Source of the DNA: Chloroflexota bacterium | GTDB lineage: Bacteria; Chloroflexota; Anaerolineae; UBA7937; B3-Chlor | Reading direction: 5' to 3' | Length of the DNA: 64,000 bases | Assembly (NCBI GenBank): GCA_030603665.1 | Contig: JAUVXJ010000003.1 | Location: 85,377 to 149,376, forward strand | Shown here: positions 7,713 through 43,613 of the stretch, piece by piece | How the letters are laid out: every line of letters begins with the position of its first letter | Numbering within the stretch: position 1 is the first letter of the stretch | Notes under the pieces: model-generated | The model's database searches: none | What the model saw: only the letters and a program-made list of their open reading frames with translations | What the model was told of the DNA's origin: nothing | Program-made: the position numbers and the translations under genes

Positions 7713-10078
7713 CTCTGCCCTATCTGGCCGTCGCCTGGCTGAGCGGCATCTACCTCCAGTCGGTGCTGAGCCTGCCGGCCTGGATCCTCTGGCTGGCAAT
7801 CCCTCTGGCGCTGGTCATCATCTTCCTCTGGTGGAATGAATGGCGCGTGCGGCTGGGTACCTCTTGTGCTTTGCTACTCCTCCTCGGCGCCCTCCGCTAC
7901 CAGGCAGCGATGCCCTCCTTCGACTCCAGCAAGCTAGGATACTACAATGGGCTGGGAAAGGTCTCACTGGTAGGGGTGCTAGCCGAGGAGCCAGACGTTC
8001 GAGACCGCTACGTGAACCTCAAGGTGTCAGCCAGTTACTTGGAGATCGAGGCCGAGGAGAGGCAGGTGACGGGCTTGGCGCTGGTCCGCACCGGCCGGCA
8101 TCCATCTTACGCATATGGCGACGAACTACAGATCGAGGGCCGCCTTGAGACGCCCCCTGAGTCGGAGGACTTTTCCTACCGGGACTACCTGGCCCGCCAG
8201 GGCATCCACTCTATGGTCGACTTCGGGCGCATCACCCTGCTCAGCCAGGGTCACGGAGATCCCTTTCACCGCGCCATCTACGCCCTCAAGGGGCACTTTC
8301 AAGAGACCATCGGTCGCCTTTTCCCTGAGCCTTCCGCCTCCTTGCTGTCGGGCATCCTCCTGGGCATAGAAACGGGCATACCTCGCTCGCTGCTGGACGA
8401 CTTCAACGCCACCAGCGCCACCCACATCATCGCCATCTCCGGGTTCAACATCGCCATCGTGGCGGGCGCCATCGGCCTGTTGACCAAGAGGTTCCTGGGC
8501 ATCTACAGGGCGGCTGTGGTCTCCCTGCTGGCCATAACGCTGTACACGATACTGGTGGGCGCCGACGATGCAGTGGTGCGCGCGGCTATTATGGGGTCCA
8601 TCTCCCTGATAGCCATCATCGCCGGACGCCAGACCTTCGCCCTGGCCTCCCTGGCGGCAGCAGCCTTGTTGATGACCCTTTGGAACCCTTTGGTACTCTG
8701 GGACGTGGGCTTCCAGCTCTCCTTTGCAGCAACCCTGGGGCTGGTCCTCCTGGTTGGTCCCATGGAAGAGAGGTTCCGGGACTGGCTCTCCGGCCTGACG
8801 TCCGAAGAGCGAGCCACAGGACTGGTGCGCCTCCTCAGCGGGCCTCTTCTGATCACCTTGGCGGCACAACTGGCGGTGTGGCCCATCACCCTCCATTACT
8901 TTCGCCGTCTCTCTCTGGTATCCCCCGTGACCAACTTCCTCATCATCCCCGCCCAGCCAGGGGTGATGCTGGTGGGCGGTCTGGCCACACTGCTGGGAGC
9001 TATCCATCCTCTCCTGGGGCAACCCGTGGCCTGGGTGGCCTGGGTGTTCGTGGCCTACACCATCGGGGTGGTGGAACTGACGGCGCGTATTCCCCTTGCC
9101 AGCTTCGAGCTGGGCGGCTTCAGCGCCGGAGCTATGTGGCTGTACTATGGGGTCGTCGGCGCCTCAATCCTGGCAGTGAGCCAAGAGAGGGATCGTCTTC
9201 GAGAGATATGGGGGGGATTCACCCAGGGGTTCAGCACCAAGCTTCTCGCGGGCGGGCTGGCGGTTGCGGTCATTCTGGCCTGGATAGCCGCTGCCCAGAT
9301 GCCGGACGGGCGCTTACACGTCCACTTCCTGGACGTAGGTCAAGGTGACGCCATCTTCATCCAGTGCCCCAATGGGCAGCAGATTCTGGTTGACGGCGGC
9401 CCCACCCCTTCCATGCTCCTCTCGCACCTGGGGAGAAGAATGCCCTTCTGGGATCGCAGCCTCGACCTGGTGATTCTGACCCACGCAGAGGTGGACCACG
9501 TTGGCGGCCTCGTCGACATGCTGGAGCGGTACCAGGTGGGTCTGGTGCTGGATTCAGGGCAGGAGTGCACCAATGCGACGTGCGAGAGCTGGAGAGCGCT
9601 CATCGAGGAAAAGGGAATACCCTACCGCAAGGCGGAGGCGGGGATGCAGGTCACAGTGTGTGGCGCCGTACTGCTAGACATCCTCCACCCACCGGCCCCA
9701 CTGATGAGTGGCACGTCATCGGACACCAACAACAACTCGGTGGTGCTGCGCTTGCAGTACGGCCAGTTCTCCGCTCTGCTGACAGGGGACGTGATGGAGG
9801 AGGCAGAGAGGGTGCTTCTCTCATCCGGACAACCCCTCGCCGGCCTGGTGCTCAAAGTGCCACACCACGGCGGGGACACATCGCTGACCACGCCCTTCTT
9901 GGAGGCGATTGGCCCTGAGCTGGCTATCATCTCCGTGGGGGCCGACAACCGCTTCGGACATCCGGACGAGGTCACTCTGGAGAAGCTGCACGGCCTGCCC
10001 GTCCACCGGACCGATCAGCACGGCAACATCGAGCTGGTGACGGACGGCGCGAGATACTGGATCCGGGCCGGCCGCTGA
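7709..10078 (+). CDS. comEC: DNA internalization competence protein ComEC/Rec2 with a C-terminal metallo-beta-lactamase domain
   Basis: 789 aa. N-terminal and central polytopic membrane region, followed by the MBL motifs HVHFLDVGQGDAIFIQ, LVILTHAEVDHVGG and VPHHGG. Confidence 0.85.
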   Translation: MTLPYLAVAWLSGIYLQSVLSLPAWILWLAIPLALVIIFLWWNEWRVRLGTSCALLLLLGALRYQAAMPSFDSSKLGYYNGLGKVSLVGVLAEEPDVRDRYVNLKVSASYLEIEAEERQVTGLALVRTGRHPSYAYGDELQIEGRLETPPESEDFSYRDYLARQGIHSMVDFGRITLLSQGHGDPFHRAIYALKGHFQETIGRLFPEPSASLLSGILLGIETGIPRSLLDDFNATSATHIIAISGFNIAIVAGAIGLLTKRFLGIYRAAVVSLLAITLYTILVGADDAVVRAAIMGSISLIAIIAGRQTFALASLAAAALLMTLWNPLVLWDVGFQLSFAATLGLVLLVGPMEERFRDWLSGLTSEERATGLVRLLSGPLLITLAAQLAVWPITLHYFRRLSLVSPVTNFLIIPAQPGVMLVGGLATLLGAIHPLLGQPVAWVAWVFVAYTIGVVELTARIPLASFELGGFSAGAMWLYYGVVGASILAVSQERDRLREIWGGFTQGFSTKLLAGGLAVAVILAWIAAAQMPDGRLHVHFLDVGQGDAIFIQCPNGQQILVDGGPTPSMLLSHLGRRMPFWDRSLDLVILTHAEVDHVGGLVDMLERYQVGLVLDSGQECTNATCESWRALIEEKGIPYRKAEAGMQVTVCGAVLLDILHPPAPLMSGTSSDTNNNSVVLRLQYGQFSALLTGDVMEEAERVLLSSGQPLAGLVLKVPHHGGDTSLTTPFLEAIGPELAIISVGADNRFGHPDEVTLEKLHGLPVHRTDQHGNIELVTDGARYWIRAGR

Positions 10079-10189
10079 GCTTCCGCCGCGCGCTTCCGGG
10101 TCGGTTGGCTTGGATCCGAAAGGTAACTGTGGTCCGTCATCCAGCCTCACCCCCGCAGCGCTATTCCCTTCGCCTCCCCAACGACCCGC

Positions 10190-10218
10190 TTGACGCCACA
10201 GGTCGCTTCTCGTACAAT
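10190..10218 (+). promoter_or_regulatory. promoter TTGACG-N17-TACAAT with a ~290-nt leader before the next gene
   Basis: Hexamers lie at 10190-10195 and 10213-10218. The downstream CDS starts at 10518. Confidence 0.45.
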
Positions 10219-10517
10219 CACCTAGCGTAATGAGAGAAACGGAATCATGAGAACCTGAACGCATAGCGCACGAAAACAGAGATGCGACGTCATTCCCCGC
10301 ACCGTCCAACCCAAGATTGCGGATGGTAGCGCCAAGGAGGCACTGCCCATGTAGAGACGCGCCTTCCGATGCTCAATAGCTTCAGGCAAGGCGCATTTTC
10401 TTTCTGCGGAACTGGAACCATACTCCACACTAAGACGTACGGAAAGGTGGGACACACACACCGACGACAGTCAGTGTCAACGATACGCGATAACTGCTAG
10501 ATCGAAAGGAGAGAACG

Positions 10518-11048
10518 ATGAGAAGGGTCAGCAAGTCCTGGATGGCCGCGGTGGCGGCCATACTCCTGGTGGGTACTCTGGTCGGTGTGGTCTGGGCCAG
10601 GCCCCATGATAGGCCGCAGGGTGCGGACATCACCCGCAAGGTCACCCTCACGGGTGCTGACTTCAATCCCGCCTTCTACGCTCACCTTTGGGATAACAAC
10701 GGCGAATCGGTGGAGTGCCAAGCCGCCGGCTGCAGCTTCACGGCTCCCGTGGTGTTTCCTTGCTTGCCCTCGGTCACCGTGGAGCGGATCAAGCTCCATG
10801 TGGCCGATAACCACGCGACCGCCCACGCCTCAGCCACGCTGCATCGCACATATCCACCCACAGGGGTTGACGTGTCGCTGGAATATGCTAAGTCCCCCAG
10901 TGGCACCAGCGGAGGTGTCAGGACTTACACCAGCCCCAACATCAACCAGATCGTGTGGCCCAGCCAAAGGGCCTACATCTCCCTGTGGATCAGCGGTACC
11001 AACATACAAGTCCACGGCGTGACGGTGGAGTACCACCGGAACATCTAG
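10518..11048 (+). CDS. secreted hypothetical protein (signal peptide), Cys-containing
   Basis: 176 aa. N-terminus MRRVSKSWMAAVAAILLVGTLVGVVWA is a signal peptide. SD GGAGAG upstream. No family recognised. Confidence 0.5.
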   Translation: MRRVSKSWMAAVAAILLVGTLVGVVWARPHDRPQGADITRKVTLTGADFNPAFYAHLWDNNGESVECQAAGCSFTAPVVFPCLPSVTVERIKLHVADNHATAHASATLHRTYPPTGVDVSLEYAKSPSGTSGGVRTYTSPNINQIVWPSQRAYISLWISGTNIQVHGVTVEYHRNI

Positions 11049-11174
11049 CCAACCGAGGCGCTCTACACAAGAGTAGCACCAGCAGCTCATCGGTCTTGGC
11101 GGTCCGCCTCTTCGTTCCACACGGGCTGACCGTGGGATGATGCTGCGCATTGGTCGCTGCGCCACTCCGCGCGG

Positions 11175-11312
11175 GCCGACAACCGCTTCGGCCATCCAGA
11201 CGAGGTCACTCTGGAGAAGCTGGATGGTCTGCCCGTCTACCGGACCGATCAACAGGGCAACATCGAGCTGGTGACGGACGGCGCGGGATACTGGGTCCAG
11301 ACCGGGCGCTGA
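11175..11312 (+). pseudogene. diverged duplicate of the last 138 nt of comEC (C-terminal fragment, relic)
   Basis: ~90% nt identity to 9941-10078. It encodes ADNRFGHPDEVTLEKLDGLPVYRTDQQGNIELVTDGAGYWVQTGR* versus the ComEC end ...LHGLPVHRTDQHGNIELVTDGARYWIRAGR*. Most differences are nonsynonymous. Confidence 0.6.
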
Positions 11313-11400
11313 GTTCCCACCGCGGAACGCTTTGCGTAGCGAAGATATCACCATGACCATCGTGTTCAACCTGAGAGAATTGTGCACCGGGGGGTAAGCT

Positions 11401-12947: not shown

Positions 12948-13013
12948 TGACATGCCCGACGTAGCCACTCAGGGGATCTACCCGTCGCTTCCGCGCTGGT
13001 GGAGGCAACGATG

Positions 13014-14108
13014 TTATCCACTCCCCTTCTCGTCCAGGATGCACCCGTGCAGTTCGGCAAAGGTCTCTGGCGGCACGATATCAGTTCGGCGCTTGAGTCG
13101 CGCTGCATCGCTGGCACAGGGGATCGCGCACAGCCCGCAACCGATGCACACTTCCTCATCCACAGTGGGAAACTCGTCACCCATGACCAGCGCATCCACC
13201 GGGCAGGCTTCGACGCAGTCACCACAGCCGGCACACGCCTCCTCGTCAGTGGTGCGCAAGAAGTAGGTGGCCATGATGTCATCGCGCGACAATCGACGCC
13301 GAGCGATAGGACCCACGTTCCAACAGGCATGCTCACAACAGTTGCAGGTATGCTTGATTCCCTCCCGCGAGTTGTCAACCATGTGCACCAGACCACTCTC
13401 TTCAGCCAGACGGACAACGCCCAGTGCTTCATCAACGTCGATCTGGCGAGCCATGCCCCTTTCGATGACATACTCGGCCAACTCATCGTACTTCATGCAC
13501 ACTTCCAGTGGATGGTCGCAGACGGCCTTGCCCAGCAATTGAGCGGTCATGCGGCAGGAGCAGTGTGCCACTGCGATGGTGCGCGCCCGGCGGATCACCA
13601 CTTCCATCGCCTCATACGGATACACAGCCTGGAAGGGTCCTTTGACGGCCTGCTTGATGGGGATGTAGCGAAATGCTTTGGTCTCGCTGCCGTACGTCTC
13701 CTTGATCTCCGGCGAACGGAAATACTTGACCACACGCGCGGCCATGTCTTCAGAATGGTCCGTTCGCTCGCCCTTCCAGAAGAAGGCCTGGGGAAAGCCA
13801 TAACCCACCTGCTGGAGCGCGTAGCCCGTGTGCCCGTCGTCGGTGGGGCCAGAGAAGAGCAGCCCCCGTCTGGCTAGCTGATCCAGAGCGTGATCCACTT
13901 CCTCACGCGGTCGGCCCATGGTAGCGGCGACCTCCCCCGCCGTGGACAGTTCCAGCGGAATGCGCGTGTTGGGCACTCCGAGGGCCACCTCCGCCTCAGC
14001 CTCGCTGAAGTTGGCCCGCAAGATGCCCACCAATTCCTCCCTCAGCGGGTAGCCCATACCCAGCGCGTGCAAGTGGTGAGCCAGTTTGGTGTAAGGGTCA
14101 GAAGGCAT
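13014..14108 (-). CDS. 4Fe-4S dicluster domain protein (Cys-rich Fe-S protein)
   Basis: 364 aa with several Cys clusters: CSCRMT...CDHPLEVC, CNCCEHAC, CAGCGDCVEACP and CIGCGLCAIPC. Confidence 0.55.
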   Translation of the reverse strand: MPSDPYTKLAHHLHALGMGYPLREELVGILRANFSEAEAEVALGVPNTRIPLELSTAGEVAATMGRPREEVDHALDQLARRGLLFSGPTDDGHTGYALQQVGYGFPQAFFWKGERTDHSEDMAARVVKYFRSPEIKETYGSETKAFRYIPIKQAVKGPFQAVYPYEAMEVVIRRARTIAVAHCSCRMTAQLLGKAVCDHPLEVCMKYDELAEYVIERGMARQIDVDEALGVVRLAEESGLVHMVDNSREGIKHTCNCCEHACWNVGPIARRRLSRDDIMATYFLRTTDEEACAGCGDCVEACPVDALVMGDEFPTVDEEVCIGCGLCAIPCASDAARLKRRTDIVPPETFAELHGCILDEKGSG

Positions 14109-14170
14109 TTCACCTCATCCTACTACACAGACTTAGGCGCCGCCATCCTTTCTTTGACTGGAAGCATCTT

Positions 14171-14235
14171 CAGGAATTGTCCAGCTTTGCGCCTCAGCTG
14201 TCAAGCCGAACGGTGTTCCCAGTCGTCAACTCGCC
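14171..14235. repeat. 65-bp element, copy 1 (second copy at 15354-15418)
   Basis: caggaattgtccagctttgcgcctcagctgtcaagccgaacggtgttcccagtcgtcaactcgcc is ~94% identical to the second copy. Confidence 0.7.
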
Positions 14236-14244
14236 TTTTTCCCA

Positions 14245-14668
14245 CCTTTTCCTTGCGGGAAGTGTGCTCGTTGTGATGGGCGCCCTCGCCCCTGTCGATT
14301 CGCGGGTCCTACTCTAGCGGAGCCATGGCCGCGACGGCGGGCAGGAAGAGCTGTTCATACAGTGTATCATGCTCATCTGGCGTGGAGACCAGGTACACAA
14401 AGTAGGCCTTGTCGCCATCTTCTGCCATCGCGAGGTCGGCCGCATTCCCCCCCGGTCTTTCAAACGAGTAGAAATCCCACGTGAAGTTGCCGACTTGCGC
14501 ACCACTGACCGGGTCCGGCGGCGGATCCAATCCCAGTTGCCCCATTATGGCGGCAAACAGCTCGGCAGCCGCACCCTGACTCGCCTCCAGGACGAAGTAG
14601 GTCGGGTCAAGCGCAGAACTGGCGCGCGCGAGATTTGCTGGCGCAAATTCCTCCCAGCCCACAGCGAC
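14245..14668 (-). pseudogene. duplicated 3'-terminal segment of the S33 hydrolase gene (C-terminal 117 codons plus ~65 nt downstream), ~97% identical to 16981-17404
   Basis: ORF 14309-14662 encodes ...GWEEFAPANLARASSALDPTYFVLEAS...LFLPAVAAMAPLE. This is nearly identical to the C-terminus of the 17044-19020 protein, and nucleotide homology extends past the stop codon. Confidence 0.7.
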
Positions 14669-14973
14669 TCTGGAGCCCCTAGGGCCCGTACTGGCACCCT
14701 AAGGGACGATGGCTCACTAAGGACACATCGGGCGATCTTTGCTTGCGTTCTGTAGAGGAAGCGCCTGACGTGTCTACCTTTCCGAGCATGCGGCTACCGG
14801 GATACTAGGCGTGTGAAGCGCCACTGGCCCGACGTTTTGTCGGGCCAGTGGTTCCCCTCGCACTCAGGTCAACAGTCGTGTTTACTGCTGTTGGCCTTTG
14901 TGGTGCACCATCTCTCCATGCAGACAGAAGATCCTGATTGCTCCTTGTCTTCTTTCCGTTCGGGTTATCCTTC

Positions 14974-15141
14974 TTAGTCGGACTTTATGAACGCGACAGC
15001 CGCCCCGCCAATGAACCAGATGCCAAGCATGAGGACCACAGCCACTGTCGGGGTGTAGGCATCGGTCATGAAGCCGACGAGTCCCGCGACGAGTCCGAGG
15101 GCGAATATCAGGCCACCAGCCGCTCTTTTGTTCAATTCCAC
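14974..15141 (-). CDS. small membrane protein (2 TM), hypothetical
   Basis: GTG start preceded by GGAAGGAGG. It encodes VELNKRAAGGLIFALGLVAGLVGFMTDAYTPTVAVVLMLGIWFIGGAAVAFIKSD. Confidence 0.3.
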   Translation of the reverse strand: MELNKRAAGGLIFALGLVAGLVGFMTDAYTPTVAVVLMLGIWFIGGAAVAFIKSD

Positions 15142-15353
15142 CGGTTTTTGCCTCCTTCCCATGAGAAGATTCGCTTTTCAGAGTAGTCCTTTTGTGTTCG
15201 TATCTGCCTGCACGGGTGACCACTCGGGCGAGGGGCTTTCATCGAAAAGACGCCTCAGAGCTCATGCGCCCTGACATGCTGGTATGAGGCGGAAAAGGAC
15301 TGTTCTTACCGAGGAGGCCTCGTAGCTGCGACCTCCTCTGCCGCGGACAGCTG

Positions 15354-15418
15354 CAGGCATTGTCCAGCTTTGCGCCTCAGCTGTCAAGCCGAACGGGGTT
15401 CCCAGTCATCAACTCGCC
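15354..15418. repeat. 65-bp element, copy 2
   Basis: See the copy at 14171-14235. Confidence 0.7.
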
Positions 15419-15427
15419 TTCTTCCTA

Positions 15428-15590
15428 CCTTATCCTTGCGGGAAGCGTGCGCGTTGTGATGCACACCCTTTCCCTTGTCGATTCTCGGGGCCTACTCAAG
15501 CGGCACCAGCGCATCCACGGCGGGTAGAAGGACCGCCTCACATAGCGCGTCGCGCGCATCAGGTGGCTCCTCGGCGTTAAGTAGACAGAA
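15428..15590 (-). pseudogene. second, more diverged copy of the hydrolase gene 3' end
   Basis: cttatccttgcgggaagcgtgcgcgttgtgatgcacaccc...cctactcaagcggcaccagcgcatccacggcggg aligns to 16981-17100 at ~75% identity. The ORF 15492-15686 ends in ...LPAVDALVPLE. Confidence 0.5.
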
Positions 15591-15829
15591 CTGAGCACAA
15601 CGCTCGGCTCTGCCGCTACAGCACAGAGGAGGGCACCAGTCAAACAAAAAAGCCGACCACAATCGGCCAGCTTCTTGGACTTTCAATTATTGGGAGGCTC
15701 TTTAGGTGGTGGTTCGGTGGTCCCGTTCGCAACGAATGGGCACCAGCGTACCGCCATCGATGTTTGACTGGGAGGTGCCCGTGCTGTTCAAGCGCCGCGC
15801 GGCGGTGTGCGAGAAACTACTGCAAGAGA

Positions 15830-16920
15830 TACCGGATTGACTTAAGTTGATGGTCTTACCCACTTTGCAGACAATGGGATTTCTATGTCAATATTCCCTT
15901 CCGCTTGTTCTATGATCCGATTCTATATGTAGCATATTCCAAGTTTCACGAAGAAAAATGGACAAGCATAGAATACTAAAAGAAGATCAATTCTCAGGTC
16001 TATCTAGCCAGTATTTGAAGGCTATTAAGCCGACTAATGCTCCTGGAATACCGATAATGATTAATAACCACCCGATCATTTGGAGGTACGAATATACCCA
16101 GTAGGTATAAGGTTGACTGCCAAAAGGGGCATAGTAATTACCGTCAAGAGCAATATAGATACAATACGCTATAAATAGAAAGGGTCCAGCCCCGCCGCCT
16201 GCATTTCTTGTCTTATGATCCTTCTTTTCTCGCTCGTTAAACCACCTCTTTTCGTCAGCTGGCAATCGATGCCACCACAAATACCCTCCTAAACCAAAGA
16301 ATATTCCTCCAGGCAACCCAACAAACAACAACTCCCATAGAATCAGCTGCAAGAAGAAGCCTACAATCCAATACAAGCTCCATTGATCGAACGTCGCGGT
16401 ACCATGATTTCCAATAGGAGAGGTTTGGATATGCCAAATCAACACGATAACCGCCACAATGCACAGAACGATTGCAGCAGCTATCGCGAGAATAAATGCT
16501 TTCCAATGCTCTTTGATTCTCCCCTTCCAGTTTGTCTCAACACCATCTTCTTGGTCTTTTTCCATAGTTCCTTAACACCCCTCTTTCTGCTTGATTCTGT
16601 TCTTACATTTCAATACAGATGAGTGGTTTTGTCAACTGCTGCAGTGAACCAATTCCAGGATTTCATTTCGGGTATTCTAGCACCTTTCAACAGAAGCCAC
16701 AACGCAAGCAGTATTTCCGCAATACCGGCAACCGCGGCACCCGGGGAAGTTATCGCTTTGAAGTAAGGAGTTACGTAACTTCGCAGGAAATCCCTTGTAT
16801 TCGATGACACCTAGTTCTTTAGAGAACAGGCAAATCGTCAGTGCCAAACCGTCCCTCTACAAGTTTGCCATTTACTATGCGATAGATGTCAACAGCCATA
16901 TTTGTCATCTTCTTGCCAGT
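15830..16920. other. low-GC (~40%) inserted segment, probably horizontally acquired, carrying one intact membrane-protein gene and gene remnants
   Basis: There is a sharp drop in GC relative to the ~60% flanks. The segment lies between hydrolase 3'-end copies. Confidence 0.45.
15987..16565 (-). CDS. hypothetical polytopic membrane protein (Trp/Tyr-rich), low-GC gene
   Basis: 192 aa with 4-5 hydrophobic helices. AT-rich codon usage is atypical for the window. Confidence 0.45.
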   Translation of the reverse strand: MEKDQEDGVETNWKGRIKEHWKAFILAIAAAIVLCIVAVIVLIWHIQTSPIGNHGTATFDQWSLYWIVGFFLQLILWELLFVGLPGGIFFGLGGYLWWHRLPADEKRWFNEREKKDHKTRNAGGGAGPFLFIAYCIYIALDGNYYAPFGSQPYTYWVYSYLQMIGWLLIIIGIPGALVGLIAFKYWLDRPEN

Positions 16921-17016
16921 AGGGGCTAGTCCATGAAATTCGCCTGCATGGGTCCCCGTATAGGTAGGGCGAACCCACACCTTATCCTTGCGTGAAGCGT
17001 GCGCGTTGTCATGCAC
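16819..17016 (-). pseudogene. C-terminal fragment of a SnoaL-like/ester-cyclase-type protein
   Basis: ...YTGTHAGEFHGLAPTGKKMTNMAVDIYRIVNGKLVEG matches the conserved C-terminal HTGEFMGIxPTGKKVxxxGIDIFRIENGKI block of that family. Only ~65 codons remain. Confidence 0.35.
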
Positions 17017-17043
17017 GCCCTCGCCCCTGTCGATTCGCGGGCC

Positions 17044-19020
17044 CTACTCCAGCGGAGCCATGGCCGCGACGGCGGGCAGGAAGAGCTGTTCATACAGCGT
17101 ATCACGCTCATCTGGCGTGGAGACGAGGTACACAAAGTAGGCCTTGTCGCCATCTTCTGCCAGCGCGAGATCGGCCGGATTCCCCCCCGGTCTTTCAAAC
17201 GAGTAGAAATCCCACGTGAAGTTGCCGACCTGCGCACTACTGACCGGGTCCGGCGGCGGATCCAATCCCAGTTGCCCCATTATGGCGGCAAACAGCTCGG
17301 CAGCCGCACCCGGACTCGCCTCCAGAACGAAGTAGGTCGGGTCAAGCGCAGAACTAGCGCGAGAGAGATTTGCTGGCGCAAGTTCCTCCCAGCCTACAGG
17401 GACGACGCCACTGAAGCCGCGCTCCTCGTCGGTGAAAGGTTCCAGCACCAACTCCGGCGCTTCGCCTGGCACATCGAAGACGACGCCGGGCATCTCCGCG
17501 ACGCACGCTGCGTCGGGCGCCTGGGTGGGGTCGTCGAAGAAGTCGCCGATGATGCTCCGGGCGCACTCAGTGGCACCAAGAACGTCATGGCCAACGCCGG
17601 GGAATTCGAAGAAGTAGCTGTTGCTCAGGTACCCGGCGACCAGTTGGCCATACTCCGGAGGTGTGACCGGGTCGAATTCGCCCTCCAATATCAAGGTAGG
17701 GATGTCGCTGACCAAGGGCTCCTTGACCCACGGGTCGGCCTCCTCGACCGGCCAGTTCTCACAGATGCCGAATATGCCGTATTCGATTTCGAACTCGGGG
17801 TCGACGCTGCTTGCCAGTTGCCTGGGCAATGCTGCTCTGACATTCAACAGATCCTCCGGCGTCCGGCCGATGAGGTCATCGGTGCAGAGCACGGACATCG
17901 TCATCCCCCGGGTCGTAAGGTCAAGGAGCAGCAGTCTGGTGCTGCTCAGTTGCGTCATGAGTTCATAGTCCCCATTGTACACATCGTAGATCGCCTGCGG
18001 CAGAACAGGGATGATCTGAGTAATGTAGAGGAAGGTCACCAGGTTGCCCAAGACCGCATCCCCGGTCAGTACGGCATCGTAGCTCTGGCCTTCTAGAGGG
18101 TTGGTGATGGTGATGGGAACAGGCTCCTCGTTCAGCTGGTCGATGGTATCGAAGAGCACGTCCTGGAGATCGGGGTACGCGCTGTTGCAGGCTTCGTCGG
18201 CCGCGCAGGCGTCAAGCATGCGCATGACGGCGTTGGCGGTGGTCGTCGATACAAAGATGCTCTTCTCCAGTGGCAGTACCGAGTTGATCGCCACGCTGCG
18301 TATGTCTTCCGGGTGGTCGCGCATGGTGGCCTGCGCCAGCAACGAGCCGTAAGACCCTCCGAACAGGTTGACCTGGTCGTAGCCCAGTGCGCTAGAGATG
18401 GCATTCACATCGGCGGCGTTCTCGATAGTATTGTAGGCCGACAGGTTGAATCCCTCACTCACCAGGCGATCACGGCAGGCCATCAGGGCGTCGAACACCG
18501 TTTCAACACCAACGTCAGGGTCTGGCTCATCGAGGATGTCATACATCGCCTCCAAGAACTCCGGGCACTCCAGCGCTGGTTCCGAGAGGCCCGTGCCGCG
18601 CTGATCGAAGATGATTAGGTCGCGATTAGGGTGAATGGGAGCAAGGACTTGCGCAAGGGCAAACGCGTTGTGCACGGTCTTCTCGCCGGGCCCGCCACTC
18701 AGCACAATCACCGGGTCGGGCTGGTGCTCATCGCTCTCGTCCTTAACTACGGCCACGGCCAGCTTGATCGTGGGCCCGTCAGGGTCAGTATGATCCTCGG
18801 GCACGATGACGAAGCCGCACTCGACCGGGGCACCTTCGGGGACGTCAAAGGGGCACGGGCCCTCCTCAAACGTGGCTACCGGTTCCGCGGTCGGCTGGAC
18901 GGTGGGAGTCGGCTCGACCGCTGGCGTCGCGGTCGGTTCGGGGGCACTCGTGGTGGCTCCGCCGCAGGCGGAAGCCAGCAACACGACGACTAGCAGGGCA
19001 AGTAGTACGTTTTTGATCTT
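17044..19020 (-). CDS. secreted alpha/beta-hydrolase, TAP-like tripeptidyl/prolyl aminopeptidase (S33), lipoprotein
   Basis: The LFGGSYGS nucleophile elbow, its length and the TAP-like C-terminal region support the call. N-terminus KIKNVLLALLVVVLLASACGG is a lipoprotein signal. The exact start codon is unclear (the ORF track starts at 18984 on GTG; the signal peptide extends upstream to ~19020). Confidence 0.7.
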   Translation of the reverse strand, partial: KIKNVLLALLVVVLLASACGGATTSAPEPTATPAVEPTPTVQPTAEPVATFEEGPCPFDVPEGAPVECGFVIVPEDHTDPDGPTIKLAVAVVKDESDEHQPDPVIVLSGGPGEKTVHNAFALAQVLAPIHPNRDLIIFDQRGTGLSEPALECPEFLEAMYDILDEPDPDVGVETVFDALMACRDRLVSEGFNLSAYNTIENAADVNAISSALGYDQVNLFGGSYGSLLAQATMRDHPEDIRSVAINSVLPLEKSIFVSTTTANAVMRMLDACAADEACNSAYPDLQDVLFDTIDQLNEEPVPITITNPLEGQSYDAVLTGDAVLGNLVTFLYITQIIPVLPQAIYDVYNGDYELMTQLSSTRLLLLDLTTRGMTMSVLCTDDLIGRTPEDLLNVRAALPRQLASSVDPEFEIEYGIFGICENWPVEEADPWVKEPLVSDIPTLILEGEFDPVTPPEYGQLVAGYLSNSYFFEFPGVGHDVLGATECARSIIGDFFDDPTQAPDAACVAEMPGVVFDVPGEAPELVLEPFTDEERGFSGVVPVGWEELAPANLSRASSALDPTYFVLEASPGAAAELFAAIMGQLGLDPPPDPVSSAQVGNFTWDFYSFERPGGNPADLALAEDGDKAYFVYLVSTPDERDTLYEQLFLPAVAAMAPLE

Positions 19021-19272
19021 TCTTCACTCCTCTTCAATGTTGAATTCCCACGCCCGTAGCACGTTGGGCCGCTAGCGGCTAGCAACCCGGTATCACATTC
19101 AAGACGGGATACCCGCACCACCACTGCGGATGAACCAAGTACATCACTATCGCCGCGACGACGATGCCACCCGCTAGCAGAACAGCGCCCGCGATGACAA
19201 GCGGCTTGGATGGTTCCTGCCTTTGTCCGGAGAAAGCAGATCCAAGGCATAGGCCCACTGCTACTTCTATCG

Positions 19273-19884
19273 CTACGCTGGCTGTATGGGATACTTGCGC
19301 ACGAAGCGGACCAACATCACGCCACCCCACAGCGTAATGACGCCCCCTACCACCGTGAGTGCCAGCGCGAAGGGCGCGTGGAGTAGATACCCACCAACGA
19401 AGGCGACTGCGGTCAGCATGGCGTATGCATACAGGCGACCAAGCCCGGACAGCCAGGCAGCTACACCCATCACGAATGCTCCAGTCACTCCAAGGACAAC
19501 CATGAGGTATTCCCGTAGCCCTTCCAGGAACCCTACCGGAACACTCCCTGTAGACCGACCCCACAGCATTACCATGCCGGCCAGCAGAGCCAGGACCAGC
19601 ATGAGGACGATGAAGACACCTGCCCTCATCATGCCAGCAAGATGCTCCTTGGGGACCTCGACGTCGGGCAGGCGCCGAGCTGTGATCAACTTCTTGGCGG
19701 ACATCCAAATGGGCACCCATACAACGACCCACAGCGCCGCCAACGGGAAATCCGAATCCACCAGCATGGTCAGGCCGGCGAGCACAATCCCCAAGCCAAC
19801 CAGAAGATCCAATACACCATCCTCCTGGTAGCGCATGTAAGCCCGCTGCTCGCGCTCTTTCGAACCGACATTCTGTGCCATCAT
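19273..19884 (-). CDS. hypothetical membrane protein (5-6 TM)
   Basis: 203-aa hydrophobic ORF. No family recognised. Confidence 0.45.
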   Translation of the reverse strand: MMAQNVGSKEREQRAYMRYQEDGVLDLLVGLGIVLAGLTMLVDSDFPLAALWVVVWVPIWMSAKKLITARRLPDVEVPKEHLAGMMRAGVFIVLMLVLALLAGMVMLWGRSTGSVPVGFLEGLREYLMVVLGVTGAFVMGVAAWLSGLGRLYAYAMLTAVAFVGGYLLHAPFALALTVVGGVITLWGGVMLVRFVRKYPIQPA

Positions 19885-20398
19885 GAACCCCCTTGCATGC
19901 TCGTCACGAGTCTCGTCTTGGCTGGATTATCTGATGGGTGACACGTAGCAGGAGCCCGACGCTTGCAGGTACTCGTGCTGGTGATCCAGATGGGGCTCCG
20001 AGGAGCGAAGTCTGTATACCTGCTTCACGATGCGGCCTGGGTTCTCCTCAACCTGCTCTCTCAGTGCCTTGACCCTGACTCCATACCCTTTCCACGTGAG
20101 TTCCATCCTTCTCTCTCCTTGGTGCTTCTATCTATACCCAGTATACATGAAGAATCCCCCAGATGCGTCGGCCATCCGGGGGATTCCTCTATTGGCCAGG
20201 TCGCTGGTCTTCTTCTTGGTCAGGTGACCAATACTCTCAGTCGAAGCACCCGGTCACCGGTGCGCAGGCGCGTCGTGGCGTTGCGACAGCCAACGACGGC
20301 GGGGATGCCCATCTCACGACCGACATCACAGGTATCCTCCTGCCTTCACTCTGCACCGTACTCTGCTACTCCTCTGATTCGCCGCTCTTCTCCTTCTG

Positions 20399-21595
20399 TC
20401 ATGTCAGGTTGCCGATGATCACCTTTGCCAGGCGCTGGATCCCCAGTTCGATCTTTTGCTCATCGCAGGCAGAGAAGTTGAGTCGCATCTTGTTCTCTCC
20501 ACCACCGTCGGCGTAGTAGCAGGAACCAGGCACGTAGGCGACTTTGGCCTGGACAGCTTGCTGAAAGAGATCCATGGCATCCATCCCCTCAGGCAGTGTC
20601 ACCCAGAGGAATATTCCTCCGTCTGGCTTGGTCCAAGTCACCTCGGAAGGAAAGTGCCTCTCCATGGCCTGAAGCATCCTGTCTCGCCTCTTGCGGTAGC
20701 TCTCGATGATGATCTGGATATGAGGGTCCAAGAGATCTCGCTCCAGGAATCCGTACATAATCCGCTGGGCAAGGTTGTCGGTATGGAGATCAGCTGCCTG
20801 CTTGGCGAAGACCAGCTTCTCCATCACGCCGTCAGGCGCGATGAGCGCACTCACGCGCAGGCCCGGGCTCAGGACCTTGGAGAAACTACCCAGGTAGATC
20901 ACCTGCCCTCCCTCATCGAGCTCCTTCAAAGCCGGCAGGACCTCGCCGCTGTAGCGAAGCTCACCATAGGCATCATCCTCAAGAATCGGCACTCCGTATT
21001 GCTGAGCCACCTTCAACAATTCCTTGCGGCGCTTCAGAGATAGGGTTACTCCGCTTGGATTCTGGAAGTTAGGAATCACGTAGATGAACTTGACGTCATT
21101 GTCCTCGAGGATCTCTGGCAGCAGATCAACTCTCATTCCCTCCCCGTCGACGGGCACGGTTAGATACCTGGCCTGGAAGAGACTGAACGCCTGCAACGCC
21201 GTCAGAAAGGTGGGATCCTCCACCAAGACGGCATTCCCCTTGTCGAGCAGAATCTTGCTCACCAAGTCAATGCCCTGCTGGGAACCCGATGTGATTAGTA
21301 CGTTTTCGTCGGTTATGTCGAATCCCCTCTTCACATATCTTTCAGCGACAGCCATCCGGAGTGGCCCGTAGCCCTCTGACGTTCCATACTGCAGGATCGC
21401 CGCTCCATCGCTATCGAGGGTATGATCCACGACCTCCTTCACCTTCTCGACAGGGAAGAGCTCCCAGGCCGGAAGCCCGCCTCCAAAGGAGATTACTTCA
21501 GGGTCGGCGATCAGATGCATCAGCTGGCGGGTCATGGAGCCGTACATATGACTTACCCGCTCGCAGTACTTGGCCTCCCAGTCAAAGGTCATCAT
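20399..21595 (-). CDS. PLP-dependent aminotransferase class I/II (2-aminoadipate/aromatic aminotransferase-like)
   Basis: 398 aa. The PLP-lysine motif SFSKVLSPGLR is present and the fold-type I pattern runs throughout. Confidence 0.8.
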   Translation of the reverse strand: MMTFDWEAKYCERVSHMYGSMTRQLMHLIADPEVISFGGGLPAWELFPVEKVKEVVDHTLDSDGAAILQYGTSEGYGPLRMAVAERYVKRGFDITDENVLITSGSQQGIDLVSKILLDKGNAVLVEDPTFLTALQAFSLFQARYLTVPVDGEGMRVDLLPEILEDNDVKFIYVIPNFQNPSGVTLSLKRRKELLKVAQQYGVPILEDDAYGELRYSGEVLPALKELDEGGQVIYLGSFSKVLSPGLRVSALIAPDGVMEKLVFAKQAADLHTDNLAQRIMYGFLERDLLDPHIQIIIESYRKRRDRMLQAMERHFPSEVTWTKPDGGIFLWVTLPEGMDAMDLFQQAVQAKVAYVPGSCYYADGGGENKMRLNFSACDEQKIELGIQRLAKVIIGNLT

Positions 21596-22261: not shown

Positions 22262-24177
22262 TCTTCTGGCTCCAGACGCTCCAGGTATATCGCCCCCTGT
22301 GGACACACGATCTTACAGGACGCGCAGCCATTGCACAGGACCGGGTCAATAGCCATCTTGCCCTCGCCATCTTCAGCGGCGACGAAAGCCGGGCATCCAT
22401 ACTCCTCCACGCAGGCGAGGCAGCCGTCGCATTTGGCCGCGTCCACCTTGGCGACTACGGTCCTTTCTCTCCACCTCTCGCCGGGTTCCAAGGCGCAGGC
22501 CTGTCGCGAAACAATCATGGCGGGGACATCCAGAACCAGCGCCTCTTCGAGTTCCCTGATCAGGCGCTTGATCTGCAGCGAGCGGACGACCCTCACATGG
22601 GGAATCTGGAAGGCCCGGGCTATGTCCTCAATGGGTATCACCGTCCGCTCGTCGGTCAGCTGCCACGTGCCGGGGTGAGGTTGCTGACCGGTAGAGGCGG
22701 TGACCGAGTTGTCCATCGCTATGATCAAGACCGGCCTCTGCTGCTGGGCTATTTGCAGCAGTCCAGGCATCCCGGCGTGATAGAAGGTGGAATCTCCGAT
22801 GACGGCTATCACTTTTCGGCTGGGGTTGAGCTGGGCCAGGGCGTCGGATGTGCCCATGCTTGCGCCCATAGAAGTCATGGTCTGCAGGATGCTGAAGGGC
22901 GGGTAGAACCCCAGGGTGTAGCACCCGATATCCCCCACGACGATAGGGTCTTTGATGCCTGCGTTCTGCAAGGCCTTGGTCAGAGCGTAGTATGTAGCCC
23001 GATGGGAACACCCAGCACAGAACCCTATCTGGCGGCGGGGTATCAGCTTCTGGATCGCTGTCGACTGTTCCGCCCTACCCTTCGAAAGGAGAACATCGCT
23101 GGGAAGCGCTCTATCGGGAGATTCTTGCCGGACCACGTCGGCCAGAGCCGAGACAACATCGTCCAGGATCGTCTCACCGACCTCCGGCAAAGCGCCGGAC
23201 TTCCGACCGTGTATCTGGATGGGGCGGTGTATGCCTTGGGCCTCCGCCTTGATCCCCTCCTCCAAGAAGGGGGTAACGTCTTCCACAACCAGGACCTGGC
23301 TCACATGGTTTAGCAGTCGGTGAATGATCCTGTTCGGTAGCGGGTTCACCGTGCCGATCTTCAATAGGGCCACCTCGCCCCTCAGCCCCAGTCTGTCAAC
23401 GGCTTCCTGAGCATAGTTGAAGGCAAAGCCGGCTCCGACCACACCGATCTTCTCGCTCCCCATCCCTTGGTAAACATCAAACTCATAACGTTCGAATACC
23501 TCCCCAGCTTGGCGCAACTTCTCTCTTAGCCTTCGCTCGGGTTCCAGGCACGGAAAGGGCGTCCACTGTCGCGTGCCGTCGAAATTTGGCTCTCGCCGGT
23601 TTCGGTCGAACTCGCCCAATTCGAGATCGCCCGTCATATGTCCCAATCTTGTGACGGAGCGTAGGATGACCGGCGTGCGCAGCTCCTCCGAAATCTCGAA
23701 AGCACGCTTGGCCATCTCGCGCGCCTCGTTCAAATCAGCGGGTTCGATGGCGGGCAGTCCAGCAAACTTGGCGTACCAGCGGTTGTCCTGTTCGTTGTTG
23801 GAGCTCAGGCCGCTGGGATCGTCCACCGAAACGATCACAAACCCACCGGCGATGTCTATGAGTTTCAGTTGCTGCAGCGAGTCAGCAGCCACGTTGAGTC
23901 CTACGTGCTTCATGATCACCATGGAACGGACCCCCGAGAACGATGCACCCGTCGCCGCATCGAAGGCCACCTTCTCATTGACCGACCAATGGGCGACGAA
24001 GTCCAGGTGGGGAGCAGCTTCGATCAGCGTCTCCATGATCTCTGTGGAGGGCGTCCCCGGATAGCCGGTCACGAACTGCACACCCGCCTCTATCGCCCCT
24101 CTGGCGATGGCCTCGTTGCCCAAGAGCAGCACACGAGTTCCAGGAGCATCCGACAGCAGCACTTCTTTCCTCATCAA
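22258..24177 (-). CDS. iorA: indolepyruvate ferredoxin oxidoreductase subunit alpha (TPP- and 4Fe-4S-binding)
   Basis: 639 aa. TPP-binding region, C-terminal CDGCLACVEEYGCPA and CNGCASCKIVCP clusters, and an IorA-type N-terminus GNEAIARGAIEAGVQFVTGYPGTPSTEI. Confidence 0.85.
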   Translation of the reverse strand: MMRKEVLLSDAPGTRVLLLGNEAIARGAIEAGVQFVTGYPGTPSTEIMETLIEAAPHLDFVAHWSVNEKVAFDAATGASFSGVRSMVIMKHVGLNVAADSLQQLKLIDIAGGFVIVSVDDPSGLSSNNEQDNRWYAKFAGLPAIEPADLNEAREMAKRAFEISEELRTPVILRSVTRLGHMTGDLELGEFDRNRREPNFDGTRQWTPFPCLEPERRLREKLRQAGEVFERYEFDVYQGMGSEKIGVVGAGFAFNYAQEAVDRLGLRGEVALLKIGTVNPLPNRIIHRLLNHVSQVLVVEDVTPFLEEGIKAEAQGIHRPIQIHGRKSGALPEVGETILDDVVSALADVVRQESPDRALPSDVLLSKGRAEQSTAIQKLIPRRQIGFCAGCSHRATYYALTKALQNAGIKDPIVVGDIGCYTLGFYPPFSILQTMTSMGASMGTSDALAQLNPSRKVIAVIGDSTFYHAGMPGLLQIAQQQRPVLIIAMDNSVTASTGQQPHPGTWQLTDERTVIPIEDIARAFQIPHVRVVRSLQIKRLIRELEEALVLDVPAMIVSRQACALEPGERWRERTVVAKVDAAKCDGCLACVEEYGCPAFVAAEDGEGKMAIDPVLCNGCASCKIVCPQGAIYLERLEPEE

Positions 24178-24364
24178 CGCCTCCCAAGATACACTAGTAC
24201 GGAGAAGCAGAAACCAGCATCCGTCCCAGGGCAGCGCTCAAAGATCAGCCTAGACGCACCTGCGAAAGGAATGATGCGAGCTATGCTTGCCAAACCATCA
24301 CCCAGAGTATCTTCCCTGTATCTTTGTGTTTATCTGCACACTGTACCGTGGCTTCCCAGACGCT

Positions 24365-24440
24365 GCCACAGATATCGCTCAAGCCATCAAGGCCAGCACC
24401 TGGAAAACCGGGTGCATTCGGTGAGAGTCAATCAGGCACA
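24365..24440 (-). repeat. fragment homologous to the 3' end of the MFS transporter gene (26170-26245)
   Basis: ccacagatatcgctcaagccatcaaggccagcacctggaaaaccgggtgcattcggtgagagtcaatcagg is ~80% identical to ccacagagatcgcgcaagccagcaacgccagcgtctggaaaacccgatccatcccctgaaagtcaatcaaacg. Confidence 0.4.
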
Positions 24441-24889
24441 GCACATGGAGGGTCCAAAGTCGCCCTGCATCATATTGAGGACAAAACGTCCGTACTGAAT
24501 CAGCAGAGGCTGATGGAGACCGAGCGAGTGGCTCACCTGAGCCCTCACCTCCTGGCCGGAGTGCAGGGGCCAATGAGGGCCAACAGGGCTCTGCAGCCGC
24601 ACGAGCAGAAAGATCACGAAGGTCACCGTCAGCACTGAAAAGGGGCCCTGCAACGATCGCCTCACTACATATAGGCATGGATTGGTAGCGTCTGCAGCCG
24701 GGATGCCCTCGACGTCGCTGCCCGCGTGCAGGCAGACCACCGGCCTGACTCCTACGTGCCGGACGACTTCTACAATGCATGCCAGGTCAAGCTCATCGCA
24801 GTACCGCGGCTGAAGACGGCAATGAGCGGGTAGTCCTGGGCCCTCGGACCGATCAAGAGTGCGCGTTTTTCGCGGCAGGACCGCCAGCC

Positions 24890-25303
24890 CTAATCACTGC
24901 CATGAAAGATCCGCGCAATCTCCGGGTTCAGGAATCGCTCGATCTCAATGGCATATCCGCCTGGGTCTTGGCACTTGAAGGCTTGAACCTGAATCCGTTC
25001 TGATTGGCTTAGCTCGGTTAGAATCTTGACTCCTTTGCTGGTCAGGTACTCGTACCACCAGGGCACATCGTCTACGATGAGCCCAAAGAGGACCGCGTTC
25101 TTTTCTTGAGCGTCGTAGAACCCTTCCTTCTCGTCGACGATTGCCAGGTATGCGTTCCCATTGACGCGATAGACCTTTGCCCAGCCGTAGTCCTGAACCA
25201 GCTCGAGTCCGATAATGTTCTCGTAGAACGCTGAAATGGGGGCAAGGTCACGATAGTACAGAAAGGTGATCTGAGATTTCACTTGCTGCTTGTTCTGACT
25301 CAT
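24890..25303 (-). CDS. VOC-family (glyoxalase/bleomycin-resistance fold) protein, paralog 1
   Basis: Start chosen at MSQNKQQVKSQITFLYYRDLAPISAFYENIIGLELVQDYGWAKVYRV...; the ORF-track N-terminal extension looks spurious. It is ~80% identical to the paralog at 29125-29538. Confidence 0.6.
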   Translation of the reverse strand: MSQNKQQVKSQITFLYYRDLAPISAFYENIIGLELVQDYGWAKVYRVNGNAYLAIVDEKEGFYDAQEKNAVLFGLIVDDVPWWYEYLTSKGVKILTELSQSERIQVQAFKCQDPGGYAIEIERFLNPEIARIFHGSD

Positions 25304-25548
25304 ATCGACTCCTTTGCTCGCAACTTGGCTTCTCGCTCGGCGTGCCCATGACAGGGTGCCGCGGGTCGCCAGGGGGAAGAGACCCGCCAGAATCGTCAGC
25401 ATCCACCGCCTCCATAACTGGGAAGCTGTTAGACGACGCTGGCCATACCAACAAGACTTCACTGATTGCCTCAGCGCCCCTGACGCTGCCATGCTGGCAA
25501 TGTGCTATAGGCCTACCTCCTTTCTCTCGACTATCCCAGCCGTCGTGA

Positions 25549-26043
25549 TCACGTTGGCGGCTGGATCGGGACAGACGACGGGGTAACGCCTTCGACAACC
25601 AACACCTCGTTCACACGGCTGCACACGCGGCGGATAATCGCGCTCGGTAGGGGATTCACGCTGGACTTCCTCGAGAGGGCCACCTCGCCCCGCAGCCCAA
25701 GTATGTCAACCGCTTCCTGAGCATGGCTGAAGGCAAAATGGGCCGCGACAACACCGATCTTCTGCCTTCCATCCCCGTGGTGCTCAATAGGCTGACAGCT
25801 CTCCAAGACCTCGCCGGCCCGGCGCGATTCCCCTCTGAGTCTCTGTTCAGGTCCCAGACACGGCAAAGGCGTCCACAGACGCGAGCTTGCAGAGTAGGAC
25901 TCTTGCCCTTGCGGCCCAGTCTTGCCCAGCTCCATCTCACCCACCACGTGTCCCAGGCGAGTGACCGAGCGCGGGATAACCGGCATGCGTGGCTCCTCCG
26001 GAATCTCGAAAGCACGTTTGGCCATTGAACGCGCCTCGTTCAA
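25549..26043 (-). pseudogene. internal fragment of an iorA paralog (degraded)
   Basis: NEARSMAKRAFEIPEEPRMPVIPRSVTRLGHVVGEMELG...KIGVVAAHFAFSHAQEAVDILGLRGEVAL aligns to IorA residues ~150-320 (NEAREMAKRAFEISEELRTPVILRSVTRLGHMTGDLELG...). Confidence 0.6.
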
Positions 26044-26118
26044 TTCGAAGACCTGCTCTGTTCCATGCTCGAAACTACTGAAAGGGCCTCTGATCGGTGG
26101 TCCGCCTCCTCGAGGCTC

Positions 26119-28958: not shown

Positions 28959-29124
28959 GGCCTCCCACTGGACAACAATGATCAGGCGCAGAGACTGGCA
29001 TCCGTGCCAGTCCAGCTTTCAAAGATCCGTGTGGGCCCACCGTGCAAGGATCGGTTCCCTTTGAGGGAGCCCTGACACTCCGACCGACCAAGCGTGCGCG
29101 TTTTTCGTGGCAGGAGCGCTGGCC

Positions 29125-39523: not shown

Positions 39524-39633
39524 AGTGAAGCAGAATGCTATGCGCCCGCTTGGCGTGGGCCTTAGCCTGAACTTCCATAAGGAGACTGCCGGGCTGTCCT
39601 CTGGACGAGTAGGCATTCGTGCAGCTGCCGGGT

Positions 39634-43595: not shown

Positions 43596-43613
43596 CCTTC
43601 ATCTCCTTGAGAA

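Follow-up and report, generated by a model that had tools for sequence, protein, structure and literature searches.

Displaced copies of a hydrolase gene end bracket inserted DNA at a putative additive insertion hotspot in an uncultured Anaerolineae bacterium

Introduction

Phage 21 and e14 in icd, as well as the ICESt1 and CIME elements that accrete at fda, target the 3' end of a protein-coding gene, which they replace with an end of their own; an identified integrase is either encoded by these elements or required by them, and their ends are fixed. Classical events of homology-facilitated illegitimate recombination (HFIR) combine an insertion with a deletion and do not duplicate the anchor; HFIR in natural transformation was reportedly described by de Vries and Wackernagel in 2002. 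In Alteromonas, additive flexible genomic islands are hotspots at transfer RNA (tRNA) genes, in which partial repeats of the target stand between the cassettes (PMC4898812). Johnston et al. (2013) described transformation-triggered merodiploidy via alternative pairing in pneumococcus, with duplications of 100-900 kb bounded by insertion sequence (IS) fragments (PMC3784515). Here, we analyze a locus within a 64,000-nucleotide (nt) stretch of DNA, hereafter called the window, from a Chloroflexota bacterium of the class Anaerolineae (assembly GCA_030603665.1, contig JAUVXJ010000003.1, positions 85,377 to 149,376), in which the 3' end of an alpha/beta hydrolase gene occurs three times around two insertions. 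In kind, the locus looks like a hotspot of additive insertion in which ends of the target gene have been displaced, not like a new kind of mobile element, and it provides a dated, base-level record of gene addition in an uncultured sediment bacterium without visible mobile-element machinery. This record comprises an empty site, an old insertion of which sister lineages have lost part, and a young insertion, most of which is confirmed in a second sample.

Results

The hydrolase gene (TAP-like, S33-type) is located on the minus strand, and gene orientation, with descending window coordinates, is used throughout (Table 1). Its product contains Abhydrolase_1 (8.8e-20) and Abhydrolase_4 (TAP-like, 3.9e-13) domains according to Pfam, and a protein matching it at 100% is encoded on the 413-kb NCBI source contig. 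The unit that recurs consists of the last 360 nt of the gene and the 66 nt past its stop codon (termed X). It occurs three times in the window and always in the same orientation: as the genuine tail C (16978-17403), as copy A (14243-14668) and as the strongly diverged copy B (15426-15683). An earlier note on this DNA had claimed three copies of the hydrolase 3' end around two insertions, and self-BLAST finds all of these pieces. The identity of about 97% that it gave for the two well-preserved tails comes down to 94.1% over 426 nt (14243-14668 vs 16978-17403, E=0), and to 95.2% within the 357 coding nt. Copy B, placed by the note at 15428-15590, is indeed present and diverged, but is longer than described, with protein-level similarity over 15495-15683 (blastx). 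This coding part, T_B, shows 35-44% identity over 56-68 amino acids (aa) to the C-termini of hydrolase homologues and reaches ~190 nt upstream of the stop; its nucleotide similarity to the genuine coding tail T_C is confined to the last ~70 nt, with similarity at the protein level only further upstream. Self-BLAST aligns B with C at 78% over X_B and the last ~70 nt of the tail (15427-15563 vs 16979-17115). The extents of the repeats are unequal (426 nt, about 500 nt and about 260 nt): the C/A repeat of 426 nt stops at the end of X, the A/B repeat consists of the last tail codons, X and a further element named Y (14165-14344 vs 15348-15527, 85% in self-BLAST), and the repeat runs through the promoter element described below in copies A and B only. 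The displaced coding tail T_A has an open frame of 117 codons and differs from T_C at 7 residues; it carries 10 private changes, 5 of them non-synonymous, vs 3 private changes in T_C.

The simplest layout behind the hydrolase gene was found in the relative L028 (JGI Ga0114930_10063145), where hydrolase, tail, stop, X, Y, 5' untranslated region and fer4, a ferredoxin-like gene, follow one another without interruption. L028 is collinear with copy C on the left (hydrolase-tail-X, 92.7%) and with copy A on the right (tail-X-Y-gene), and removing 2,735 nt, i.e., one tail-X copy and all DNA between C and A, turns the window into the L028 layout. In other words, the occupied site minus the inserted DNA and one repeat equals L028, as an empty site of an att-type element would look. 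The earlier note had also described a 65-bp element in front of two of the tail copies. This element is present, but it is 78 nt long (Y_A, 14165-14242, and Y_B, 15348-15425; 92% identical), and because hydrolase, X, Y and fer4 are uninterrupted in L028, it is the native intergenic promoter region of the fer4 gene, named fer4_364 in the window. Both copies contain a promoter-like TTGACA-17-GACAAT (14204-14176 in Y_A and 15387-15359 in Y_B), and Y_A is located 56 nt upstream of fer4_364. Behind Y_B, a stub (f') corresponds to codons ~51-62 of fer4_364 and is also found in L023, a relative described below; by our own estimate, a match of this quality has a chance expectation of <1e-3. Unit B therefore once read tail-X-Y-fer4 and has since lost ~208 nt, and the alignment places the junction of this deletion, between Y_B and f', at a short homology (CTG). 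An Rfam scan for structured RNAs or riboswitches in X-Y gave only a sub-threshold chance match elsewhere, and the exact 22-mer of the promoter element had no match in metagenome contigs. The body of the fer4 gene shows ~76-82% nt identity to every sampled relative, while the promoter and the first ~50-100 nt show ~94% identity to L028.

The remaining close relatives contain part of the additional DNA. L023, an ENA contig whose hydrolase is 91% identical in aa sequence, reads hydrolase, tail, X, Y, the 35-nt fer4 stub, a segment named U, ~370 nt, and then orf64, paaK and comEC, and it is 93.9% identical to the window across the U region (15527-14648). L024-L027, four assemblies with 90% aa identity for the hydrolase, resemble L023 but are without the stretch from early X to mid-U, and are joined there at a short homology (CCCG.GAA). 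In all of L023-L027, fer4_364 is absent at this place and U stands directly behind the sole hydrolase tail (six independent assemblies, among them a 5,370-nt ENA contig). In these relatives the last letters of U are 'GTCGCTGTGGGCTTGGAGGAACTC', identical to the tail start at 20/24 positions, and the first 13 nt of T_A are the end of U in L023. Allowing for all U/gene positions, we estimate the probability of such a match at that spot by chance at ~1e-2 or less. We therefore read 'GTCGCTGTGGGCTTGGAGGAACTC' as a 24-nt stub of a second tail copy, a chance match being very unlikely, and from this stub it follows that the U/tail junction predates the split of these lineages. We originally modeled the window as a stack of alleles imported from L023-like and L028-like strains, a model that was dropped as the tail stub makes the U-tail junction ancestral. 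In the relatives, a 142-nt internal piece of an aminotransferase gene lies between U and orf64 (L023 3106-3247 and L024 4335-4481, corresponding to window 20927-21068, 89%); it occupies the place of tail A and fer4 in the window and looks like captured filler DNA.

Judged from these alignments, the older of the two insertions, termed E1, appears to predate the split from the L023-L027 lineages: these keep U and the 24-nt tail stub, and are read as having lost the remainder of tail A, X, Y and fer4. E1 would have put U between two tail-X-Y copies, after which the start of fer4 in the upstream copy would have been deleted down to the 35-nt stub. Among themselves, the genuine tails of the window, L023 and L028 show 96.6% identity, and T_A, with 94.7-95.8% identity to them, is slightly more distant; these figures, together with the private changes of T_A, agree with an old E1. 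The cargo of E1 starts with the native promoter and the 35-nt piece of fer4 coding sequence, i.e., with duplicated native sequence. U itself had been noticed earlier as a 0.7-kb segment with a small membrane-protein open reading frame (ORF), and both the segment (14669-15321) and its ORF of 55 aa are confirmed. By eye, a perfect 13-bp stem with a 5-nt loop (CCACTGGCCCGAC AAAAC GTCGGGCCAGTGG; window 14893-14863, minus strand) can be read 3' of the 55-aa gene in U; it is conserved in L023 and is not followed by a T-run.

The younger insertion, E2, brought in DNA that L023-L028 do not contain. Compared with L023, the extra DNA of the window extends from 16977 to ~15464 and consists of a low-GC stretch, a GC-rich spacer, T_B and the first ~27 nt of X_B. 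The earlier note had recognized the low-GC segment with its membrane-protein gene and SnoaL fragment, and all of these are present; its extent, given as 15830-16920, is corrected to 15850-16977. This low-GC piece is foreign. The switch between foreign and native sequence can be located within X. The first ~27 nt of X_B contain 6 differences from the X of L023, the identity to L023 jumps from 76% to 96% at about 15467, and from the last 39 nt of X_B onward it amounts to 96-100%; copy C agrees with L023 throughout the first 27 nt of X and has two private changes in the last 39 nt. This pattern is what would be expected from a reciprocal exchange near the start of the 39-nt block, the partners of which would have been the chromosome and a molecule reading '...spacer, T_B, Xa', Xb', SnoaL fragment...'. 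E2 would thereby have separated X from Y in the upstream copy by a patchwork of 1.5 kb that consists of gene fragments, the membrane-protein gene mem192 and a diverged hydrolase tail of its own; the switch would lie where the last 39 nt of X begin. The open frame of the SnoaL fragment extends into X_C to 17016, and PDB alignments place the beginning of the SnoaL homology ~15 nt inside X ('SRKDKV' vs 'AEEDRV' in 2gey). Because the homology starts only there, the left end of E2 could, as a guess, alternatively be an illegitimate join at GATAAGGTG, the X_C/SnoaL junction. A hairpin at 15668-15651 was first taken for a terminator that ends E2, but it lies inside the diverged tail remnant T_B, and we therefore claim no function for it.

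Most of E2 was also found in an independent assembly from a second sample. This contig, L107 (ENA ERZ23486233; 1,386 nt, GC 0.46), matches window 16966-15596 at 94.3% and ends before X_B; in it, too, the low-GC DNA runs without a break through the spacer into the 5' (upstream) portion of T_B. By our reading of its sequence, the 66-codon ORF of the low-GC segment is broken by a stop in L107. The 44-aa plus-strand ORF of the spacer had no Pfam match. For mem192, 198 homologues were found, and all named ones are from Promethearchaeota/Lokiarchaeota, Hermodarchaeota or Odinarchaeota, except for one labeled 'subsurface metagenome'. The closest homologues after L107 are located on contigs of 30-33% GC and show 72-80% nt identity; they are L108 and L109, from the Promethearchaeota metagenome-assembled genome (MAG) GCA_054386175.1, L113, which has a gene with a ZPR1 domain as its neighbor, and L114. 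The GC content of mem192 is 43.5%, in a genome of 59% GC. In our view, the simplest reading is that mem192 was transferred, likely recently, from Asgard archaea into this Anaerolineae lineage.

Comparison with relatives lacking the inserts, which the earlier note had proposed, thus yields an empty site in L028 and loci without E2 in L023-L027, and with these simpler relatives at hand the insertions hold up as real, each with a copy of the gene's 3' end at its border. Behind a hydrolase gene of 88.9-92.7% nt identity, the layout is a different one in the window, in L023, in L024-L027 and in L028, so that gene content at this one locus differs among close relatives, and partial repeats of the target 3' end lie between the cassettes, with three tails bracketing E2 and E1. 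In the genome collection, all hydrolase relatives above 50% identity are from Chloroflexota, mostly Anaerolineae MAGs. At the 22 species-representative loci (L001-L022), the tail is single, downstream synteny is not conserved and no tail duplication was found; these loci are therefore uninformative on the history of the locus. Compared with window 19258-19924, the closest species representative (L001, 84% aa; positions 887-1030) is without ~750 nt between orf59 and the hydrolase gene; this DNA carries a 203-aa membrane-protein gene (19273-19884) and is present in L024-L027.

Table 1. Features of the hydrolase locus and of the comEC locus in the window. TM, transmembrane.
Feature	Position in window	Strand	Evidence or remark
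Alpha/beta hydrolase gene (TAP-like, S33-type)	17044-18984	-	646-aa ORF; anchor gene with repeated 3' end
T_C, genuine coding tail, last 119 codons	17047-17403	-	96.6% identity to tails of L023 and L028; 3 private changes
X_C, 66 nt after the stop	16978-17043	-	64/66 identical to L023; X present behind all three tails
Low-GC segment, foreign cargo of E2	15850-16977	-	GC 0.44 vs 0.59 for the window; absent from L023-L028
SnoaL-like C-terminal gene fragment	16819-16977	-	Pfam SnoaL 3.1e-14, profile positions 67-122 of 126
66-codon ORF, possible DUF4386 membrane-protein C-terminal fragment	16610-16810	-	Weak Pfam match, positions 179-210 of 210, E=0.023, below cut-off
mem192, intact 192-aa multi-pass membrane-protein gene	15987-16565	-	TM segments read by eye; Asgard-archaeal affinity
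GC-rich spacer between low-GC cargo and T_B	15684-15849	-	GC 0.56, ~165 nt; contiguous with the low-GC part in L107 too
T_B, strongly diverged hydrolase tail copy, right end of E2	15495-15683	-	blastx to hydrolase C-termini
X_B	15426-15491	-	First ~27 nt diverged (element-like); last 39 nt match L023 at 38/39
Y_B, copy of fer4_364 promoter region	15348-15425	-	97% identical to L023, 92% to Y_A
f', 35-nt remnant of fer4_364 5' coding region	15322-15356	-	83% identical to 13921-13955 inside the intact gene
U, 0.65-kb segment of E1	14669-15321	-	93.9% identical to L023
55-aa predicted membrane-protein gene in U	15141-14974	-	Conserved GTG start at 15141; called as 55 aa in L023
T_A, displaced tail copy, open but decaying pseudogene fragment	14312-14668	-	95.2% vs T_C
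X_A + Y_A, native intergenic region and promoter of fer4_364	14165-14308	-	Collinear with L028
fer4_364, 364-aa 4Fe-4S protein gene	13014-14108	-	Pfam Fer4 families; original downstream neighbor of the hydrolase gene; adjoins hydrolase in L028
comEC case: tail, 1,074-nt insert with orf176, displaced tail copy	9931-11324	+	Tails 9931-10090 and 11165-11324

Other repeat-insert-repeat structures in the window

Three further structures in the window consist of repeated gene parts with other DNA between them. The earlier note had compared the hydrolase locus to comEC, and the duplication there is real (160 nt, 89% in self-BLAST), but the two loci share no sequence; L023 and L024 have one comEC tail and no insert. 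The gene in the insert, orf176, encodes a 176-aa secreted or membrane protein, and its family is found mostly on very short contigs. Members of the family also form plain tandem arrays with a period of 1,055-1,065 nt, which is about the size of the insert (Anaerolineae contig L110, 2400-5500). Homologues of orf176 were found in such arrays (L110) or beside unrelated genes (L112), not beside comEC, and because of these contexts they provide no second dated example. The second structure is a unit of about 1.3 kb, made up of the iorA 5' region and a VOC gene, that is repeated at about 80% identity and flanks FGE-sulfatase and MFS genes. In the third, a whole DHO_dh-ferredoxin gene is duplicated (1,234 nt, 86%; 39624-40855 vs 42398-43629) and flanks an amidohydrolase gene. 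The comEC, iorA and DHO_dh repeats have no sequence in common with the hydrolase tail or X.

Within window 23225-30062, internal and 5' fragments of iorA and the VOC/glyoxalase gene are duplicated at 72-85%, with a truncated unit (iorA fragment, VOC, iorA 5' end) upstream of the FGE-sulfatase and MFS genes and a full copy adjoining intact iorA. L024-L027 join window 42392, at the end of the DHO_dh-ferredoxin gene, to 20264, and the window thus has ~22 kb extra (20265-42391), which carries, among others, aminotransferase, iorAB, VOC, MFS, FGE and ABC transporter genes and is bounded on one side by the duplicated DHO_dh gene.

Sequence identity also varies within genes. The identity of the hydrolase gene to L023 and L024 swings between 74% and 99% per 100 nt, with a mosaic pattern over 17044-19050 vs L023, L024, L028 and L001, and the identity of unit A to L028 falls from ~94% to ~78% some 50-100 nt into fer4. 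From such patterns, the lineages involved clearly appear to exchange DNA by homologous recombination.

Discussion

We interpret the locus as a small hotspot of additive insertion that follows the hydrolase gene and arose in two or more nested events of recombination through homology to the tail, and we put this reading forward with about even confidence. The ancestral layout would have been that of L028, in which the hydrolase gene and its stop are followed by the 66-nt X, the 78-nt promoter region Y and fer4. Judging from the anatomy of the locus, DNA carrying a stretch homologous to the gene end would recombine with the chromosome there, either through a single Campbell-type crossover of a circular molecule or through unequal crossover, and the addition would be left between direct repeats. 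The remaining junctions would have been closed, or later trimmed, at short homologies, and trimmed differently in different lineages. No dedicated site-specific recombinase would be required. Gene ends would be seen as repeats because events that carry a gene end (or a start with its promoter) leave one intact copy, and so survive. As expected of homology-driven addition, the added DNA lies between direct repeats of event-specific extent and several other junctions lie at short homologies. A comEC gene is present in the window (Pfam), but, like the mosaic identity profiles, it bears on the pathway only indirectly. Homologous recombination would account for all four structures in the window without any sequence specificity.

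Several observations weigh against this interpretation. No intermediate, circular or other, was seen, and we infer the recombination pathway entirely. A site-specific core would explain the seemingly reciprocal switch of E2 at a single 39-nt block equally well, and the fact that one gene end was affected twice could point to a site preference. The first 17 nt of L107 match neither the window nor the other loci, and the left end of E2 is therefore confirmed in the window only. Finally, the scan for recombinases covers 64 kb of a 413-kb contig, and an integrase could lie elsewhere.

In a rival reading, serial site-specific integration, small elements without an integrase of their own would have accreted in tandem, mobilized in trans by a tyrosine or serine recombinase encoded elsewhere, with an att site at the hydrolase end and a surrogate tail in attP. 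Three direct repeats in one orientation, the exact restoration of the L028 layout when one repeat and insert are removed, and the occurrence of E2 in a second sample speak for such a process; in addition, the switch from host to element on the left of E2 and that from element to host on its right can both be located where the last 39 nt of X begin. Yet the 40 ORFs scanned across the window contain no integrase, transposase, recombinase or reverse transcriptase domain (Pfam), which agrees with the earlier note on the lack of an integrase, and a BLAST search with 13000-17050 gave no match in either the plasmid or the phage collection. The repeats differ in extent at both ends instead of sharing one core and one boundary, and the left end of L107 differs from that of the window. 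Because of these unequal, event-specific extents and the lack of a recombinase domain or of plasmid or phage similarity, we disfavor the single site-specific element class that the earlier note had suggested. The short-homology junctions, the native promoter and stub of the native neighbor gene with which the E1 cargo begins, and the three further structures with unrelated repeats argue against it as well; since the comEC, iorA and DHO_dh repeats are unrelated to X and the tail, one recombinase could not serve all of these structures. All in all, we regard serial site-specific integration as unlikely.

Far less probable is an assembly artefact, in which locus variants of co-existing strains would have been concatenated in series in the 413-kb contig. 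The source looks metagenome-derived, simpler variants of the locus occur in nature, and the junctions of X_C with the SnoaL fragment and of U with a full-length T_A are seen in the window only. However, the independent assembly L107 joins the low-GC DNA to the spacer and continues into the upstream part of T_B, the junction of U with the tail start is preserved as the 24-nt stub in L023-L027, and L028 independently confirms part of the structure; moreover, the copies are 5% apart with a pseudogene-like excess of private changes in A, and there is no exact repeat at the U/T_A junction by which a k-mer graph could have been mis-threaded. The displaced tails might also be thought to have a function, as promoterless silent cassettes that donate to the hydrolase C-terminus by gene conversion in the manner of pilE/pilS. 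The tail is indeed the least conserved part of the protein among distant orthologues (31-65% aa identity vs 56-77% for the whole protein), T_A has kept its frame open, and A, C and the relatives share four polymorphic sites in a mosaic pattern. But T_A is only 7 residues away from T_C, synonymous changes make up half of those private to it, T_B has degenerated, the second copy was lost in the relatives and no conversion tract was demonstrated, which leaves this idea highly improbable. A diversity-generating retroelement, with the tails as variable repeat and template repeat, was rejected: a near-identical repeat of a gene 3' end does lie nearby, but the A/C mismatches are of all kinds and not adenine-specific, a spectrum that rules such an element out; the repeat continues beyond the stop codon, and no reverse transcriptase domain is encoded in the scanned ORFs. 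We also discarded orphan C-terminal modules of polymorphic toxins, as the repeats are the tip itself, including the stop and 66 nt beyond it, and A and C differ at just those 7 residues.

Additive recombination through tail homology therefore remains our favored interpretation. As a speculation that we ourselves hold to be improbable, small modules made up of a host gene end and one small membrane- or secreted-protein gene might act as recombinase-independent mobile cassettes in Anaerolineae, popping out via their flanking repeats and re-inserting by a single homologous crossover, and might thus ferry genes, archaeal ones included, between lineages up to about 20% diverged. The points of note are the gene of apparent Asgard origin, through which the locus would document a likely recent transfer from Asgard archaea to Chloroflexota, and the recurrence of a repeat-insert-repeat signature without an integrase. 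If this signature were frequent genome-wide, it would suggest that homologous single-crossover addition is a main route of gene gain in this group.

Comparison with known systems

Like the Alteromonas islands, the locus has different sets of cassettes at one position in close relatives, and its additions are split by direct repeats of the target's 3' end. Unlike those islands, the locus has the end of a protein gene as its target and unequal repeats of about 260-500 nt; no integrase was found in the window, and the cargo is partly duplicated native sequence. The order of an intact gene, inserted DNA and a displaced, decaying copy of the end is shared with the elements in icd and fda, where accretion likewise gives three att-like copies; here, in contrast, the ends are variable, the inserts measure 0.7-1.5 kb and the window contains no detected integrase. 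As in HFIR, foreign DNA is anchored by one homologous stretch, with short-homology joins elsewhere in the locus, and comEC is present, but unlike in classical HFIR events the anchor is duplicated. Campbell-type insertion-duplication and merodiploidy share with the locus the direct repeats around the addition, the coexistence of an intact and a partial gene copy, and the reliance on homologous pairing alone. Compared with the pneumococcal duplications, the units here are small (1-3 kb), bounded by gene ends and combined with foreign DNA.

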